Both the position numbers and the translations under genes were made by a program. The notes below the pieces were generated by a model. That model saw only the letters and a program-made list of their open reading frames with translations, was not told the DNA's origin and did not search any database. Below are positions 41,942 through 56,560 of a stretch of DNA of 64,000 nt, piece after piece; the stretch's first letter is position 1, and each line of letters begins with the position of its first letter. The stretch lies in assembly GCF_037042905.1 (NCBI RefSeq), contig NC_087250.1:16742001-16806000 (forward strand). The letters are read 5' to 3'. The stretch is from Lytechinus pictus (lineage: Eukaryota).

Positions 41942-44900
41942 CATGTATTTTATTGTGCTCCTGGCTTCATTCGTAAATGCAGCTAGGGTGAATCATTTTT
42001 TTTTTCTTATAGTAATAACAATTGAGTGTTTGTTTTCTGAATCAAGTATTTTTTGTTTAAACAAATCAGTGTACATATCCTTTCAAAGAGTCAACACTTG
42101 ACATAAAATGATTGAGTGCGAATGGGTCAAATTTGATGGAAATTTATGTACCAATTTATACTCTTTAGAGGCGGTGTATAGCAGAGACTGCTCTTCGAAT
42201 GTTTTGAGAGCATTTGCAAAAATGTTCCACTACCAAAAGTATTGTATTCCTGATTTTCAACAGTAGAGTCATCCATTGCTATGTTGTACTGTAAAAGCGC
42301 TATGGGCATGTTCCATTCAAGGATGTTTCATTTTTCATAGAAAAAATGTATGGATATACCTAGGGGTGTACGTATGTTTGTATGTATGTGTGTATGTATA
42401 CTGTATTAATGTAGTACATTCGACGATATATACCTAAACTATCCCTTTTTCTAAAATGTATAGTTCGTTGTTTTATTACAATATGGGGGTAATTCACGGG
42501 TGAACATTGATGTTTATTCGATTAATGGTTTCCCAGTACGTTAATTTGATTTTGTTTTATGAAGGTTTGTTTATCGTGATCCATGTATTCATTGTAAATG
42601 AATACATGAATTTGAATAATATTCAGGCCTACTGAAAATTTGTATCTGCCAATCCATCCCCTTTGAACAAGGATTAAAATATATGAGGTTAAAGCATAGA
42701 GCTATTATGGTTAAAGCCTTTTTTCCCCCTAGTTACATGAAAATGCTCGTCGGAAAATTATGTGTTTTTTTTGTATGACACATCATGAATTATTCGATAA
42801 AAAAATTTAAACCGAAATATTAACAAACTGTAAACAAATTTACAGTTGAAAGGGGAAAATGCCAAGAATTTTGCCAATTATTGAGCCAATCTTGCATGTC
42901 TTGAGCAATACAAACCAAGGTCCAACAAATAGACAAAAATAAGTGCCCAATCTTTATTTTATTTTCTTCCATTTCAGTGTATAACCTACCCGACTTACCA
43001 GGGTATTTTCTACCAATGATTAAAGGACAAGTCCACCGCAGCAAAAAGTTGATTTGAATAATTAAAAAAAAACATAACACTGAAAATTTCATCTAAATCG
43101 GGTGTAAAATAGTACAGTTATGACTTTTTTTTTATTTCGCTTAATTTCACATACCAGTTATATGCATATTCTGGTTGGTAATGAAATGAGGGGACTGATG
43201 ACGTCGTCCACTCACAATTTCTTTTGTATCATTATATGAGATATGAAGGATTTTATTTTTCTCCTCATAGTCCGGGAAAACAAAGTTTTATTTCTCACTG
43301 AATATGTAGAATTACCATGGTTGTAACATATTATGGTTCAGTCAAGTTGGTCCTTACTGTCAAATATGTAAAGATTCAAATCTCATATAATTCAAGTTAG
43401 TAAAAAAATAGTGAGGGACACCATCGACTATTTCGTTTGCATGCCATTGAAAGTTGTGCATATAACTGTTTTGTGAAAAAAATATGTGATCCTTTAAAAT
43501 GTCATAACTGCATTATTTACATCCGATTTTGATAACATTTTTAGCGTTGTGCTAGTGTGATTTTTCTCTATTTGATTAAAACAACTTTTTTTTCTGGGGT
43601 GAACGGTTTAATCGACTTCGGAAAGCGAAATTTTTATTTTTTCAAAATTCGACGATTGAAATTTAGAATATATGTATGTATAGACATACACTTTGAATCA
43701 TTGGGATGATATCTAAAAATTAAACGAAATCAGCTACAGTTAATAACAAGTCGAATTCTGGATAAATAAGTAAATTTAAAATGTTTCTTAACTTCACTCT
43801 TGAATTATTCACATTCATACCAATTGCATCGGTCATGTTTACCACTTTGGAAAATTAAAATTGATTTAATTTTAATTAAAATCACATCTTTGAATTTCTT
43901 AAAACAGACGATACAATAAAGGAAAACTGGAAAATGATTATCAGTGTCAATGAGAAGAAATATAATAAGTTTAATATTATTGAAGGATTACTCAAACTGT
44001 GCTGAAAAAAAATGATGACAACTTACTTCACTCAGATGGAAACCGGCCACTGGGCCCCCTTTTCAGAAAATTTGTCATTAATGTCAAACACAGAAATCAG
44101 TTCCATTAGTTTGCTGTCACCCAATGAAAAACACAATTTCCGGAGCTTGTAACAGATATCATCTTATTTTGGTTATACAAGTAATGAAGTATCTTGGAAC
44201 TTGTATCCGTGTAGCTACTTGTCTGCTTCAAATGTGTTGGAGTACGTGAGACGACACACTTTAACAGATAGACCCAGACCGCGTCGTGAATGGACGACAT
44301 TCACTCTGGCACTCTAATAAGTTATTATCAATCTGGCAGAACCGAATATCGATATCAAATGCAATCGGTGTTTAATGTTACATGGAGGAGCGTATCCAAA
44401 GTTGATATCTATACGTCACACGAGACAGAGCGTCTATCCCACGACCAAAATGACCATATAATTTAACCACTCTAAATTCGGCACAGCTATCGCAAGTTCT
44501 ATTTAACCAGCGGCAACCTCATAAGACATTACTATATCAATTATGTCGTTTGTTTGGTTGGGGTTTTAAATAGATGTACGCATGCGCAGTGGTAAGTTTA
44601 TCGGACAAATTGTTTTAATGAATGATTATAAGACAAATGCAACGGGGGAATTGTGTATAGAAACGACATCGGGTTTTTTGTTTCATTTGAATCATATGCA
44701 AGGGAGCAAGGTGGACAAAGTGTTCGTCCAAGGACTTTCAATATGATCCCTAATACCTCAGTCACATTTGCTCTACGGGAGTTGAAAACAGCCGTTTTAA
44801 CTTTTTTTGTACCAGCTACATATTGGTGGTTTGCACAAAAAAGAATAAACGGCTGTTTTTGACTTGCCGTACGACCGCCGTAGACCAAATGTAACTGCGG

Positions 44901-45504
44901 TATAAGTGATCGTCTTTCGATATCAGGGTGTCATAAACAAGACATTTTTGCATGGTTTTCCCATCATATTTTAATGTTCCAAAATATTCTAATTTCACGA
45001 ATTAGGGTGAAATGTATACCGCACATGAGTACATTCTTTTTTTAAGTATTAAATTAATATTCTACACAAAAGGGGCACATTGTGAGTGACAACGAGAGTC
45101 AATACCTTTATTATTATTTTGTTTTATTTTTGTCTGTTTATTTTTTATCCATGATTATTAATTTCTATTTATAATTTTTATATATTAATTTATTTATATA
45201 TTTATTCATTTATTATCTATTTGTTTGTTCATTTATTTGTTCTTATTTTCATTCTGTGATTGTTATTATTACTATTTTTCTTTGGGGGAGGAACTGGAGT
45301 TGGGACATTTTCATTGATTGGAATGGAGTCATCCAAATATTCCCAGAAGCGTCACTCAGGGGGAGGGGGCAGGGAGCGATCCTTCCCGTATGATTGTTCA
45401 TTTCATGAAGCGAAGAACAGGAAAATGGAACAAGAAGGGGACAACGTGATAATGAAGGACATGAAGGAAGGTGAAATAAAAACTTTTAAAACGAAATGGT
45501 CTTA

Positions 45505-45666
45505 TACCTTGGTCACATTTGCTCTACGGCGGCCGTACGGCGAGTCGAAAACAGCCGTTTTAACACTTTTTGTACCAACTATAAATAGGTGGTTTGAATT
45601 AAAATTAATAAAACGGCTGTTTTCGACTCGCCGTACGGCCGCCGTAGAGCAAATGTGACCAAGGTA
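45505..45666. mobile_element. Small palindromic MITE; degenerate copy at about 44754-44901
   Basis: About 60-bp perfect TIRs TACCTTGGTCACATTTGCTCTACGGCGGCCG... Confidence 0.8.
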
Positions 45667-46182
45667 TTAGCCATGTGAATTTGTGGTAATTCCTACAATT
45701 CAATTGATAATGAAAATGACGTCGCATATTATGAATAGATAACGATATGAATAAATAAATATATGAATAAATAATAAATAAATAATAAAATAAAATGGAA
45801 TAAAATATTTACCCGAAAAAAAATTGAAAAGAACAATCCCGGCGCCGCCTCTGAATTCTTTACATGAAGCCGATCGCTGGATTCTGCCATCTCATCTTCT
45901 GACCGAGCTGCAAGTGTTAATGGTAACAAATTAACTATCATCAAAAGCTGGCGCTATACGCTTATTCCTGTTCTTGGTCTCACAGGCCTAATTCATTCCC
46001 CCATAGACTCGTGTGTTAAATTGGCACTTTAAAAAATTCATAAAAAATAAGGATGAAATTCGGGGGTCGAATGTTTACTACCAGTGGATAGGATATATAT
46101 CTGGCAATCCATATCTGACCAGAAAAGGGTCCCTCGACCGGCTCATTTTAAAAATAAATTGGCGTGTTTGAAGACACCGTCG

Positions 46183-48802
46183 CACAACTGCTGGCTAGCG
46201 ACCGACGGATTTCCATTCTCAGCCGTTCTCTGATTGGTCAGTTAAGACAGTGCGGTGTCTGTGTGTTCCGTATGTGCCATGCGAAACGTGCTGTACATGT
46301 GTTCACTGGTCGTGTGGGCATAGAGTAGATACCCAGTCGTTTTATTGATTTTAACCTTACAATAACAACGATCAGGGATGGGTTTATTTTGTTGCTGTGT
46401 GTGCAGCGCATGTGAAGGATAGAAGTTTTTTACAGCTCTTAATTAACTGACTCTCTTTCCAAGCTAAAAAATTATAATGATAATTGCTACATTCCAATTG
46501 TGTGATTTGTTTGTTTTAGAAAAGGTCTTTTATTTTTTCCTGTCTATTAATTCTCCCATTATTTAAGAGTCTTCACTTGTGTTTCATTACATTATACAAT
46601 GTCCACTGTAATGAAAATGGAAACATGCCAGTCAATGGACAGTATTATAAAAAATGGAAACATGCCAGTCAATGGACGGTATTGGGTTTCGCATGGCACA
46701 TACACACACGGAACACACAGACACCGCACTATCTTAACTGACCAATCAGAGAACGGCTGAGAATGGAAACCCGTCGGTCGCTAGCCAGCAGTGTCGCACT
46801 GTGGGCCAGAAAGAACCCAAAGTGCGCCAAAACCCATTATTCACACATTTGTACGATTACATTTGGTAGATAGGGGTAATTTCACCCGTAGAATTCAATA
46901 AAAGTATTTTCAAATATTGATGACGTCGTTAAAATACTGTTTTCTGACTGGCTGTTAACATTTGAGCAGAAATTACATGTTTCTAATTCTACAATAAGTT
47001 TCAAATTTTCAGAAACTAGTGTTAGATAAATTTCATCAATAATTAAGCATATTAGCAAACAGCAAACACACAAACAGGCAACCAAACCAGAAAAGTCTGT
47101 GCTCGGGGTACAAAAATTAATAATTCAATTGGTGACTTGAGTATCGCTTGAAGAGGGCGCCCTACCATGAATCCGGAATTGTAAAATGCAAAGTGAGATT
47201 GTAAAAAAAAGGAAAAGGAGTATTTTAATTCCCTGGGTACATTGATTAGCCACACCTACATGAATTAAAATGGATTGATACCAGAAGTGGACAGTGAATC
47301 TTTAAAATAATGATTCCAGTGATAAATAATAGAGACCAGGTCCTCTGCAGGTTAATCATGCAGTACAAGGCCCTACAAGGCCTACCTTATTCCGAATCAG
47401 AGTCTCTCTCTACTATCTCACCAACTATTATGTGTTTGGTGAGAGGATCTTTTAGCACACTTTGAACATCAGGGGGAAGAGGCTGTGATTGTTGTACTCT
47501 TAAAAACTTGCTACTAATCACAAATGTCACCTGTTACCATACGCCTGTGGAATATATATAAAGTCAATGAGAATCATAAACCAAACAATCCTTGAAACGA
47601 TAATATACACTTCCTTCTTGATCGATACTAACAGTTATAGCAAACTTAGAATGAGCCAAGAGATAAACGAATTCAAACGTGTATGTAAAGTTACAACCCC
47701 CCCCCTTTTTTTTTTTTGGGGGGGGGTAATACTAATAATGATAATGCAACTTATACATGTAATAGAGCCCACGTATATCCCATCTCTGTCCTATACACAT
47801 TTTCATATTTTGTCAGAAAACTGTGAGAGACCTATCACATCCCTAGTCATGTGTGTTATAGCGATATACAGTAGCCCATACTTGGTTTATGAACAACAAA
47901 ACAAATATATAATCTTACCCGGGAATCTTACCTTAAGAATTAATCTTCTCAGGATGACAGCATATCATATAGGGAACACGGGATGGAACAGTTTGCATCA
48001 AAACAAAGTTGTGTTACATGTATTATTATATAGTCAGTGGAATTGGAAATGAAAGCTTGCCTTTACGTATGTTTTAACGAAAATATTTTAAAGGCAGACA
48101 CCAGTCACAAGAGCCAGACACTTAAACCAGATACCCCCCCCCCCCTCTCTCTCTCTCTCTCCCAGAACGCGACGGGGAGTTTGTTTAATGTCACCCGCAA
48201 CGTTCGGCATGCACGCGCATAATGGGACACTAACTTGGAACGATTTTTGTGATAAATACGGCGAACATGTGGTTGGAAAATTGGTTATATCTCCAGAAAA
48301 TGCACGTATATGCAGCTAAATTTGGTATCAGTGTAAAGCATGAACTTAAACAAAGACCGTCATGGTATTTACAGCGCAGCAATCGGCAGCAATTTGTAAA
48401 AGAAATGCTCATGAAAAAATAAATGCTAAAACCGCCCCATTGTCAAATGGTTTCGTCCAAAATTGCCTCTGAAGGGATTATCATTTTATCTTAAAAATGT
48501 TTGATCACTTAAAACAATTATTCATCAAAGATCACCGTGAATTACAATGAAATTGAGCAATCTGTTTTGTTAAAACAGTGAAATATCTAAAAACGTGTCA
48601 TTTACACTTCCGGTAGCCGTAAAGAGTCATTTTCGGGTAATACTGAATAAAAATGGGCAACAAATAATCAAGTTAATGGAAAAATATTGTACGGAGGCAT
48701 TCTACAGGTTCTTATCTTTGCTTAGAACATTAAAAAAACAAAATTTGTTTCATGACCAAAAACCAGTTTTGGCGCACTTTTGCTATCTCCTGTCCCACTG
48801 TG
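46183..48802. mobile_element. Non-autonomous Transib/RAG-like DNA transposon (core about 2 kb) with RSS-like TIRs
   Basis: Ends CAC(A/T)GTGGGCCAGAAAGAACCCAAAGTGCGCCAAAA and CACAGTGGGACAGGAGATAGCAAAAGTGCGCCAAAA; 5-bp TSD CGTCG at 46178-46182 and 48803-48807; empty site at about 50182. Confidence 0.8.
46187..46792. mobile_element. MITE with about 100-bp TIRs inserted in the left end of the Transib-like element
   Basis: ACTGCTGGCTAGCGACCGACGG...CCGTCGGTCGCTAGCCAGCAGT; flanks gtcgcaca/gtcgcact (8-bp TSD with 1 mismatch). Confidence 0.8.
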
Positions 48803-49981
48803 CGTCGGGGGGAGCAGATTCATCACCTCAAACAGCAAAATAGCCCTAATCCTTCCGCCAGTCAAAATATAGTCCAAAATTGGTGATATTTCTTCCCAAT
48901 TTGGGAAAAGGAAGTTCAGTAATTACCAAAAATAGAATCAGTGTTAGATGGACAATCATATGCATACAATTTGTCAATCAGCCATATCAAAATTTAAAAA
49001 ATGGCAATGGGTTGGCTCGAATGAATATCTCTTGCTTTCCCAATGTTAATAGGCCCGTGTAGCCTGTAATATCTCACGTGTATTTCTTTTTTATTATTTC
49101 AGCCTCCTTGCTATTCCTTTACACCTCCATACTGACATTATAACAAAAAATTGCACCAATAATCCCAATGTATTTGGTAATGACTCATTTAATGGAGCCC
49201 ATAAATGTACATGTTTATATGTGTTTTACACAATCCTTACTGTATCCCCATAAATGAATGCAATGTACAAGCAGATATACTTAGCAACATGGAGGTATAA
49301 AGATGTATAATTTTTGATCATAACTGGGTGCTAGAGGACCCAAGGCAATGTCCTTCATCATACTTAAATAATTTGCAAATGAATAATAAGAAAACAATAA
49401 AGCAATGTGTACTGTATGCATGCTTTAAACATTTGTCTTTTCTTTTGCAGTTAATGTGCATTATATTAATATGGAGAGAGAATGAGAAAGAAATATGAGA
49501 GAGAGAGAGAGAGTATTAAATATTAATATATACCCCCCCCCCCTCTCTCTCACCCCATCCCCTCTTTCTCTACAATATCATATTGTAGAGAAAGAGGGGA
49601 TGGGGTGAGAGAGAGAGAGGGGGGGGGTGAAACTGGATGAATGGATAGATGGATCAGTTACTTACCTGCTTACTGCCTGCTTAGCCCAATTCTCCCACTT
49701 TACTGCATCTCCTGATGATTTAAATGTGGATATTAGTGAAAATTAAGTATTTTTGACAAGTTTTAGTACATATTTCATCGACTTACTGAAAACTGAGATT
49801 TTCCCCTATTTTGGATTACAGGGGAGCGTTTCATCAATATTTTCACCCGACAAGTTTTCAGATCTGACATCTTTCTATGATTTTGATTGGCAGAGAGGCA
49901 CTGTTTCTATGGTTACTGTCGGATAAAATGGGACTTGTCGGATAAAGCGTCTGACAAGTCCTTTCATGAAACGCCCCCCAA

Positions 49982-50444
49982 GTCTCACAGGCCTAATTCA
50001 TTCCCCATAGACTCGTGTGTTAAATTGGCACTTTAAAAAATTCATAAAAAATAAGGATGAAATTCGGGGGTCGAATGTTTACTACCAGTGGATAGGATAT
50101 ATATCTGGCAATCCATATCTGACCAGAAAAGGGTCCCTCGGCCTGCTCATTTTAAAAATAAATTGGCGTGTTTGAAGACACCGTCGGGGGGAGCAGATTC
50201 ATCACCTCAAACAGCAAAATAGCCCTAATCCTTCCGCCAGTCAAAATATAGTCCAAAATTGGTGATATTTCTTCCCAATTTGGGAAAAGGAAGTTCAGTA
50301 ATTACCAAAAATAGAATCAGTGTTAGATGGACAATCATATGCATACAATTTGTCAATCAGCCATATCAAAATAAAAAAAATAGCAATGGGTTGGCTCGAA
50401 TGAATATCTCTTGCTTTCCCAATGTTAATAGGCCCGTGTAGCCT
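49982..50444. mobile_element. About 460-bp repeat, intact copy
   Basis: Colinear with both halves of the interrupted copy; single CGTCG at the junction. Confidence 0.8.
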
Positions 50445-50647
50445 TGGTCGGAAATTGGAAAGTGTAAATTTATACGCCTGGCGTTTTACTGTTGTCAAGT
50501 TCAACGTGGTAGACCATCGAGTTTTGTACCGTTATTGCAACCATGCACAAAATTCGATTAGATGGATCATGTTTTTGTACACGTTACTCGAAAAAGGTGG
50601 GAGAGCACTAACCCCCCCCCCTCCAGATTCCACGACCCCTGGTGTTC

Positions 50648-50795
50648 GTAGTAGTAGTTGTTGTTGTAGTAGCAGTAGTAGAAGTAGTAGTAGTGGTAAT
50701 AGTAGTGGTAGTAGTAGTAGTAGTAGTAGAAGAAGTAGAAGTAGTAGTAGAAGTAGTAGTAGTAGCAGTAGAAGAAGTAATAGTAGTGGTAGTGA

Positions 50796-50860
<65 letters not shown>

Positions 50861-50964
50861 TAGTAGTATAGTAGTAGTAGTAGTAGTACTAGTACATGTA
50901 GTAGTAGTAGTAGTACTACTAGTAGAAGTAGTAGCAGTAGAATAAGTAATAGTAGTAGTAGTGA

Positions 50965-51017
<53 letters not shown>

Positions 51018-54600: not shown

Positions 54601-55174
54601 AGATTCATGACCTAACTATATATTTGTCTGTAATTTCCTTAAAAGATACCAGATTTTGATTTTAGAAAATTCTGGAGGGTATTTTCAAACATCTGCAAAT
54701 ATTATCTTAAAAATTCATTAACGCCTAACTTTTGTTGTGAGTCGATTGCCGTTTAAAAAATGTGACTCGCGTAACACAGGAGTGTTACTCGCGTGACAAG
54801 TATCATTTCGGTAGTAAGTTGAAGAAAAAAAATGTATACAGTAAAGCGTGCCAAATTTTCTTCAACAGAACATTTATGATCACTTGCATCCCATTTATCT
54901 TTAAAACAAAGGAATTTTAAAGTCACGCTTTGATATATCTACTTGTAAAGTTGACATGTAGGACCATAATTATATTGTAGTCCCATACGTGTTATTAATT
55001 GCATTTAACAATGACGTTTTTCTAAATGAAAGAAATCTTCAGGCCTTAATGTGACTCGTGTGACAGCTTTTAGGGTGTTTCTTTTTCATAAATGAAGGGG
55101 TTTTACAGTTGGTAATCTTCTTTGCTGGTTTGACTTAGGCTCCTTACTTTTATCAACTACAAAATCAACTCCAA

Positions 55175-56560
55175 GCACTTTGGCAAGAAATAAAATTCAT
55201 GCCGAAGCACGACACGGTTTCCGACAAGGGTTATCAACTGTAACACAACTTACCTCGGTAGTCCATGAGTGGTCTCAAACACTTCAAAGTCGTAGTCAGT
55301 CTGATGCTGTTTTTCTGGATTTCCAGAAAGCCTTCGACAGGGTAGCGCATGAACGTCTTTCCATCAAACTACAATATTATGGCATCTCTGGGGATTCTCT
55401 CAACTGGATCCGTGCTTTTTTATTGGAAGGTCACAGTCAGGTTGATGGGAGCCAATCGACATCATGGAAGGGTGTCTCATCAGGAGTACCGCAGGGTTCA
55501 GTTATCGGCCCTACTCTCTTCCTACTCTATATCAATGACATCAAAAATAACATTTCATCATCCATACGTCTCTTTGCTGGTGATTGTGTAATCTTTCGTG
55601 AAATTTCATCAGACTCTGACTACAATGCTTTGTAACAGGACCTTCGTACTTAAACTACATGGTCATAATTTTGGCTCATGCACTTTAGCGTTAAAAAATG
55701 TGGTGTGATGTCTTTTACTCGGAAACCAATATCACATCCAGGATTATATTGTCCCAAGAGTCTCGGAGGATCCTGTATAAGTACCTGGGAGTAACTGTAT
55801 ACCAGATCTTCGCTGGAATTGACATTGCCAAAATATCCGGCAAAAAGCCAGCAAGACCTTAGGACTTATCCGTCGAACTCTCTTGCCATGCTCAAGAGAA
55901 GTGAAGTCGAGAGCTTAAACAGCTCTGGTTCGACCCCAGCTTGAATACGCCTCAGAGGCTTGGAATCCCTACACCTTGACTGCCATCAGAAACCTTGAGC
56001 AAGTGCAAAGAACAGCAGTTCGATTTGTTGCCCATGACTACAGGGGTCTACGTCATCCTCACACATGTTGTCTGCTCACGGATGGGACACACTACATCAT
56101 CGGCGACTCCTGGACCAATGCTCTCTTCTTTTCAAGATTCACTACAGACTGGTCAACATGCCAATGCCAGCTATAGTCACTCTGGCAACATATCTTGCAA
56201 GGAAGGACCAAAGACTGAAATTTGCTGTGCCGAAATCGTCTATTGATTCCTACAAATACTCCTTCTTCCCAAGGACAATCCGAATATGAAAACACCTGCC
56301 TGGCGAAGTTGTATATACAAACAGGTTTACCAGCATTCAAAGAGGCTGCCGCGCTTCCCATTATTAGAAGTCTGCAGCCTCCAACCAGATCTCTTGTTCT
56401 TTAAGATGTATCCAGGCTTTTACTTGCACATTGCACTCTCCTTTTATTGAAAATTAGAGATCTTCACAATGACACTAATCTTTCACAACATATTGCAAAG
56501 TTCATTCCAGTTTAGCGTTTTGGAGCTGCAAGAGGAATTATCTCATCAAGTATCAAGTAA
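55175..56560 (+). mobile_element. 5'-truncated decayed CR1/L2-group LINE (RT and 3' end)
   Basis: HGFRQGLSTVTQL, FLDFQKAFDRV, SGVPQGSVIGPTLFLLYIND, RLFAGDC, YKYSFFPRTI; stops and frameshifts; (TCAAGTA)2 tail near 56546. Confidence 0.9.

Follow-up and report, generated by a model that had tools for sequence, protein, structure and literature searches.

A non-autonomous Transib element of Lytechinus pictus with a transposase remnant and recombination-signal-like ends

Transib transposons with 38-bp ends that resemble the recombination signal sequence (RSS) of V(D)J recombination were described by Kapitonov and Jurka (2005; PMC1131882), whose available text includes Transib1_SP and TransibN1_SP, the latter from the purple sea urchin. 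CGNCG is named as a Transib target in the accessible text of PMC4735498, that of PMC4840297 reports 5-bp duplications and cleavage by nick plus hairpin for HzTransib, and echinoderms commonly have Transibs with intact ends according to the available sections of PMC10629977. Here we describe a member of a related family in a 64,000-nucleotide stretch of Lytechinus pictus DNA (NC_087250.1, positions 16,742,001 to 16,806,000, analysed at full length and called the window). Very probably the element arose from a canonical single-gene Transib by internal deletion and was moved in trans by the transposase of its family into CGNCG targets; it was later changed by a nested insertion and by mutation.

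By its ends and its target, TransibN1_SP is the nearest described element. Its 36-bp end (Fig. S4g in PMC1131882) agrees with each of the two consensus ends of the window family at 31 of 36 positions in a hand count, the first 13 and the last 14 bases being the same; 10 of the 11 left flanks listed are CGNCG, like the targets of the window family, and both families lack coding capacity in the form described. The copies of TransibN1_SP measure 0.56-0.99 kb and have symmetric ends, whereas the window family is 2.0 kb long and its ends differ at 6 of 36 positions (PMC1131882, as far as printed). The exact TransibN1_SP end finds no match closer than three mismatches in the L. pictus genome (10 matches). 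The interior of TransibN1_SP is not printed, and the comparison covers the ends and the target site; judged by these, the window family appears to be a sister of TransibN1_SP and thus a close relative, and Repbase or Dfam may already list it. An earlier sequence-only reading of the window had added that a match to a catalogued Transib would remove the novelty, and for ends and target site TransibN1_SP largely does so.

Other described systems agree with the family in part. Transib1_SP, compared here by its description (available text of PMC1131882), is 4132 bp long with a 676-amino-acid transposase and a CGGCG duplication, and resembles the present case in its single gene and 5-bp duplication. 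HzTransib is likewise a single-gene Transib with a 5-bp duplication, and a transposase frame related to the parent of the window family aligns with it over ~410 residues. The RAG-like (RAGL) transposons ProtoRAG/BbRAGL-B, TransibSU and PflRAGL-A, as presented in the accessible parts of PMC7204232, PMC4411706 and PMC10629977, have a heptamer starting with CAC and a 5-bp GC-rich duplication in common with the family. In contrast to them, the window family contains neither RAG1L nor RAG2L, shows no A-rich block directly after the heptamer and no spacer asymmetry, and carries a remnant of Transib coding sequence.

The window insertion and its family

The sequence-only reading had placed a Transib-type element with RSS-like ends, a 5-bp duplication and an empty host copy at 46178 to 48807. 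All motifs quoted there are present, and the duplication and the empty site stand, but the stretch 46183-46796 is for the most part not Transib, and the body of the element runs from 46797 to 48802 (Table 1). On the reverse strand from 48802, the right end starts with CACAGTG, a perfect match to the V(D)J RSS heptamer, followed by GCAAAAGTG past a 12-nt spacer and CCAAAACTG past a 23-nt spacer; the left end, from 46797, reads CACTGTG and continues with CCCAAAGTG and CCAAAACCC at 12 and 23 nt. CGTCG borders the insertion on both sides and is present once, at 50182-50186, in an uninterrupted copy of the host repeat; relative to that copy, the two host halves, when joined, show 5 substitutions and a 1-bp indel. 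With the empty site in the same window, the boundaries and the length of the duplication can be read directly. The empty form (joint 46177 to 48803) also occurs in contigs of the 4 public runs compared with the window; 18 of the 21 runs listed contain part of the stretch, and one may be the assembly's own sample. Because the host is a high-copy repeat, this joined form is uninformative on polymorphism at the locus. The summed contig depth of the host repeat in 4 public runs is very high, a depth being no copy number.

The left heptamer was split after its fourth base by an unrelated element, which is bordered by the 8-bp duplication GTCGCACA / GTCGCACT. Ends of this nested family match 99 times in the genome with at most one mismatch, a perfect 8-bp duplication is present in 6 of 8 other fetched pairs, and paired copies span ~0.6 to 15 kb. 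Since the heptamer of the Transib family is CACAGTG, the T in CACTGTG was acquired later, when one copy of the duplication mutated. The nested duplications give the order of events: insertion of the Transib, nested insertion, and point mutation in the duplication.

Searches of the 812-Mb assembly revealed many full-length copies of the element elsewhere, with 89-92% identity (DNA search, 40 of 204 candidates scored), and 125 right and 127 left ends matched the end patterns, the reversed-pattern controls yielding 0. A genome-wide tally of duplication lengths had been proposed together with the sequence-only reading, and the length of 5 bp proved to be a property of the family: of 29 further copies that were fetched, 24 show the 5-bp duplication without a mismatch, 2 show it with one mismatch and 3 have a damaged end (L003 and L013 are a segmental duplicate, and L010 and L026 have a flank in common), and a perfect 5-bp duplication also encloses all four long copies. 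The family prefers CGNCG, which makes up 19 of the 24 perfect duplications and occurs only 58 times in the 64,000 bases of the window. The inverted ends of ~38 bp with a CAC start and an A-rich block near position 30-38 are those that PMC1131882 gives for a Transib. As a separate observation, the end of a related Transib subfamily starts 8 bp past one family copy, in its right flank (L061, G000:C8:38032720 onward).

Thirty copies have a mean pairwise identity of 95.6%, with up to 99.5-99.7% between copies at different sites; therefore, the family moved in several waves, some of them young. Of the 30, the window copy has diverged most, with 94.9% identity to its nearest neighbour and 53 private differences at 1964 sites. 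This weakens the earlier suggestion, made from the near-identical host flanks, that it was mobilised recently. The flanks show 5 substitutions versus ~12 expected on one branch from the divergence of the copy (P about 0.016). The two neighbouring host-repeat copies are closer to each other than expected from the age of the Transib insertion, for which either a late move of a diverged donor or homogenisation of the two host copies may be responsible.

Transposase remnant, broken parent and rival origins

No transposase reading frame had been noticed inside the element, which holds, but it contains a 171-bp transposase remnant (Table 1). The same remnant is found in all 30 aligned copies, and ~590 bp downstream of its stop codon are retained in the window element. 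The frame used for comparison, 495 residues on contig C15 (G000:C15:7470347-7471831, L062), was reached via a Transib-like library protein. Its best solved relative is HzTransib (PDB 6pqn, E=3.8e-83, ~410 residues aligned), while amphioxus RAG1L scores E=5.8e-5 and a RAG1 Pfam match was not obtained for this frame. As an active transposase of the family the C15 frame was rejected, being a fragment that lacks ends and resembles the family only inward of the stop codon and the broken parent on contig C8 only from ~residue 44. It is a stop-free internal Transib fragment with neither family end nearby. In public run X15, a 1312-base contig matches the window solely over the remnant.

The broken parent on C8 has its transposase gene in three pieces and is continuous from the end of the gene to a family-type end followed by CGGCG, with 92% identity to the family over 766 bases. 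A paralogous Transib on contig C11 has related ends on both sides and the flanks CGCCG/CGCTG; it is ~12 kb long (L063, L064) and has near-duplicates at three further places of C11. With the remnant, the continuity on C8 and HzTransib as best structural match, the family descends from an element with a Transib-type DDE transposase. The search for long copies encoding Transib or RAG1L/RAG2L, which had also been suggested earlier, led to this broken Transib parent, and the DNA fetched around the RAG1L loci held no family ends.

In the mechanism we favour, internal deletion would have kept both ~37-bp inverted ends, ~590 bp past the stop codon and the last 55 transposase codons, all of which are seen in the element, and the transposase of the family would then have mobilised it in trans. 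Cleavage presumably took place at the CAC borders of the heptamers by nick and hairpin with insertion at a 5-bp stagger, as established for HzTransib. Insertion was into CGNCG sites, where the copies are found, and for the window copy into the CGTCG of an abundant host repeat; the unrelated element then entered the left heptamer and one base of the resulting duplication mutated. The window copy is a decayed member of the family. Some results weigh against this reading. Among 86 of 173 transposase-search candidates scored there was no intact parent, the longer matches all being fragments or containing stops. The C8 gene has no end within the 1.5 kb fetched upstream, and no parental 5' end was matched to the right-hand 1.2 kb of the element. 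Furthermore, the apparently whole RAG1L-RAG2L transposon of the same genome may occasionally cross-mobilise the family. Long copies were considered as autonomous parents and rejected. The long end-to-end pairs (4 of 11 fetched, plus two on contig C13) are in all six cases 2-kb elements with other repeats nested in them, and six more long pairs match transposase residues 440-495 only.

The boxes at 12 and 23 nt reported in the sequence-only reading exist, but as parts of a symmetric inverted repeat and not as a 12/23 pair. The A-rich boxes at both spacings could be read as a true 12/23 pair or as bipartite signals, one end using a nonamer-like box at 12 nt and the other end one at 23 nt; the left 23-nt box matches the nonamer at 7 of 9 positions, and some insect Transibs have 12/23-like ends (PMC1131882, available text). 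Overall, the boxes match the nonamer at 4-5 of 9 positions at 12 nt and at 5-7 of 9 at 23 nt. Because both boxes stand at both ends at equal spacing (the two consensus ends are 30/36 identical), there is no 12/23 rule. The perfectly symmetric ends of TransibN1_SP carry the same boxes (PMC1131882, as far as printed), and the HzTransib ends show little or no nonamer similarity according to the accessible text of PMC4840297. We therefore hold a 12/23 pair to be very unlikely; the RSS likeness of the window element is that of an ordinary Transib end. We also consider it very unlikely that a RAG1L-RAG2L transposon gave rise to the element by loss of its genes, or that the enzyme of such a transposon is its main mover. 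The perfect RSS heptamer with the 5-bp GC-rich duplication would agree with such an origin, and the genome does contain RAG1L frames (17 RAG1 Pfam matches), one of them within a 13,574-bp element on contig C182 with a CGGAG duplication and a convergent RAG2L. The ends of that element, however, continue after the heptamer in an A-rich block and have only 13-18 of 36 bases in common with the consensus ends of the family, and between both elements there is no alignment >19 bp. Such a block, called TR2, is described for RAGL ends in the available text of PMC7204232 and PMC10629977; the family ends continue with GGCCAG instead. The family itself carries Transib coding sequence, and in a tblastn search of the 30 copies with two RAG1L frames for a RAG1L remnant the best value was E=5.2. 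The DNA fetched around 15 RAG1L loci contained no family-type end, and these loci were rejected as parents. The former wording, a Transib or RAG-like transposase, can thus be kept in its first half, a non-autonomous Transib, and not in its second: the remnant and the broken parent are canonical Transib, the RAGL ends differ, and RAG-like descent of the window element appears largely refuted.

The C182 element (G000:C182:10626-24199; L046, L047) has ends of heptamer plus A-rich block. Its RAG1L exon comprises 612 residues, is stop-free and ends in the motif CX2CX3GHX4C, and the best match of the convergent kelch plus PHD frame is amphioxus RAG2L (E=3e-15); contig C233 (L031, L032) carries an identical RAG1L region. 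This RAG1L-RAG2L transposon is apparently whole, and the accessible text of PMC10629977 states that no intact RAGL transposon is known in echinoderms. A second RAG1L frame of 624 residues with convergent kelch-like frames lies on contig C4 (G000:C4:15673400-15683500; L048, L049). As a heptamer-bounded pair with duplication was not found within the 19.8 kb fetched, this locus is possibly a domesticated RAG1L-RAG2L pair. A RAG2 Pfam search of the genome returned nothing, which is uninformative, as the RAG2L frames found otherwise were missed by it.

Features of the window

Table 1. Positions of the Transib insertion, the nested element and the host repeat in the window.
Feature	Position	Strand	Evidence
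Left part of host repeat (abundant ~460-bp element)	45977..46182	+	98.5% identity to 49982-50186
Left CGTCG copy of target duplication	46178..46182	+	fits family consensus CGNCG
CACA, first four bases of original left heptamer, severed by nested insertion	46183..46186	+	within 8-bp duplication 46179-46186 / 46793-46800
Nested unrelated non-coding element, 606 bp, ~107-bp inverted ends (ACTG...CAGT)	46187..46792	.	inverted ends and 8-bp duplication
Body of non-autonomous Transib, 2006 bp	46797..48802	- (strand of parent transposase gene)	full-length genome matches 89-92%; 96.6% to majority sequence of 30 copies
Left terminal inverted repeat (3' end of parent element)	46797..46833	+	31/36 to 3' end of broken C8 parent; 31/36 to TransibN1_SP
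Transib transposase remnant, last ~55 codons and stop, one frameshift in window copy	47387..47557	-	156/171 bases to C15 frame; tblastn E=3e-19
Right terminal inverted repeat (presumed 5' end of parent)	48766..48802	-	29/36 to 5' end of C11 Transib paralogue
Right CGTCG copy of target duplication	48803..48807	+	direct reading
Right part of host repeat	48803..49065	+	98.9% identity to 50182-50444
Uninterrupted host copy (empty site), CGTCG once at 50182-50186	49982..50444	+	joined empty form also in public contigs

The ends of the host repeat form a short imperfect inverted pair (49986-49995 / 50429-50438); a target duplication was not readable at either of its window copies, and an Rfam search of 45000-51000 gave no match. 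A small palindromic repeat is present in two copies (44750-44906 and 45501-45670), which are ~760 bp apart, 83-90% alike and of very high contig depth. At 1868-2902 the window contains an Arg/Asp/Glu-rich frame of 344 residues, which we take to resemble an exon of an RNA-processing gene, and the frame at 55096-55635 presumably resembles a reverse-transcriptase fragment of a long interspersed nuclear element.

Zero-spacer joints on contig C13 and their significance

The assembly contains four perfect right-to-left junctions of family ends, in which CACTGTG is directly followed by CACAGTG, and all of them lie on contig C13 (L050, L052, L053, L083). Two are part of a head-to-tail array at 13881552-13892374, the others are at 13956315/6 and 14023761/2. 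Both outer flanks of the array are CGGCG, and one target duplication encloses the whole array. The second array joint repeats the first in tandem with 99.6% identity; an inverted duplicate with 99.3% identity over 6.3 kb holds the other two joints, at distances of 70 and 140 kb, and of these two the one inspected is located between inverted arms of 1.1 kb. Hence the joints would go back to one or two events, between which a marker analysis of the C13 pieces, with its mosaic pattern, did not decide. Among the 15 joints listed from public-run contigs (168 others) there was no end-to-start joint that would confirm the C13 joints by reads.

Blunt joining of cleaved ends would explain the structure on C13. 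We regard it as slightly more probable than not that in an invertebrate germ line a natural Transib without a RAG2 of its own gave rise to a precise signal joint of the V(D)J type, and that this joint was fixed in a chromosome; the joint might then be a fossil of end-joining after cleavage, by sister-chromatid joining, re-integration of a circle or excision of a 5-bp spacer. Two insertions into the same CGGCG, with subsequent loss of the 5-bp spacer by slippage between two GC dinucleotides, would restore the same junction and are possible for the C13 joints, to our judgment with a smaller chance. Each insertion regenerates its target, copy L061 does have a related end 8 bp past its right end, and the available text of PMC5932611 reports that DNA-transposon tandems arise by double insertion and that small deletions often span the junctions. 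However, slippage requires an exact deletion of five bases in copies that are only ~1% diverged, a spaced family dimer as precursor is missing among the first 100 listed left and right ends (of 127 and 125), and the two right halves of the array have a private base in common, as expected from a single source copy. An origin in which one copy had entered the terminal five bases of another, at its end or its start, was rejected, as the outer ends are plain CGGCG without extra bases.

Comparable joints are known from other settings. The end-joined circles of hobo and Hermes have exact end joints like those on C13, but are extrachromosomal (PMC2803484, accessible text). Signal joints made by HzTransib and mouse RAG2 on RSS substrates are experimental products according to the available part of PMC4840297, whereas the C13 joints are chromosomal and lie inside one target duplication. 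In the literature searched, to which most subscription papers did not belong, no Transib signal joint fixed in a genome was reported.

RSS-like ends, 5-bp CGNCG targets and gene-less sea urchin Transibs have been known since 2005, and the window element itself matters little. The window nevertheless offers a well-defined example, in which an empty site and a nested insertion can be read and a coding remnant links a gene-less element to its parent. As this Transib family shares its genome with an apparently whole RAG1L-RAG2L transposon whose ends are different, cross-recognition is open to a direct test. The joints on C13 would matter more if they were made by the enzyme: the choice between transposition and signal joint for cleaved ends is a central step from a transposase to the V(D)J recombinase, and enzyme-made joints would mean that signal-joint formation occurred in vivo with the single-gene type of ancestor.

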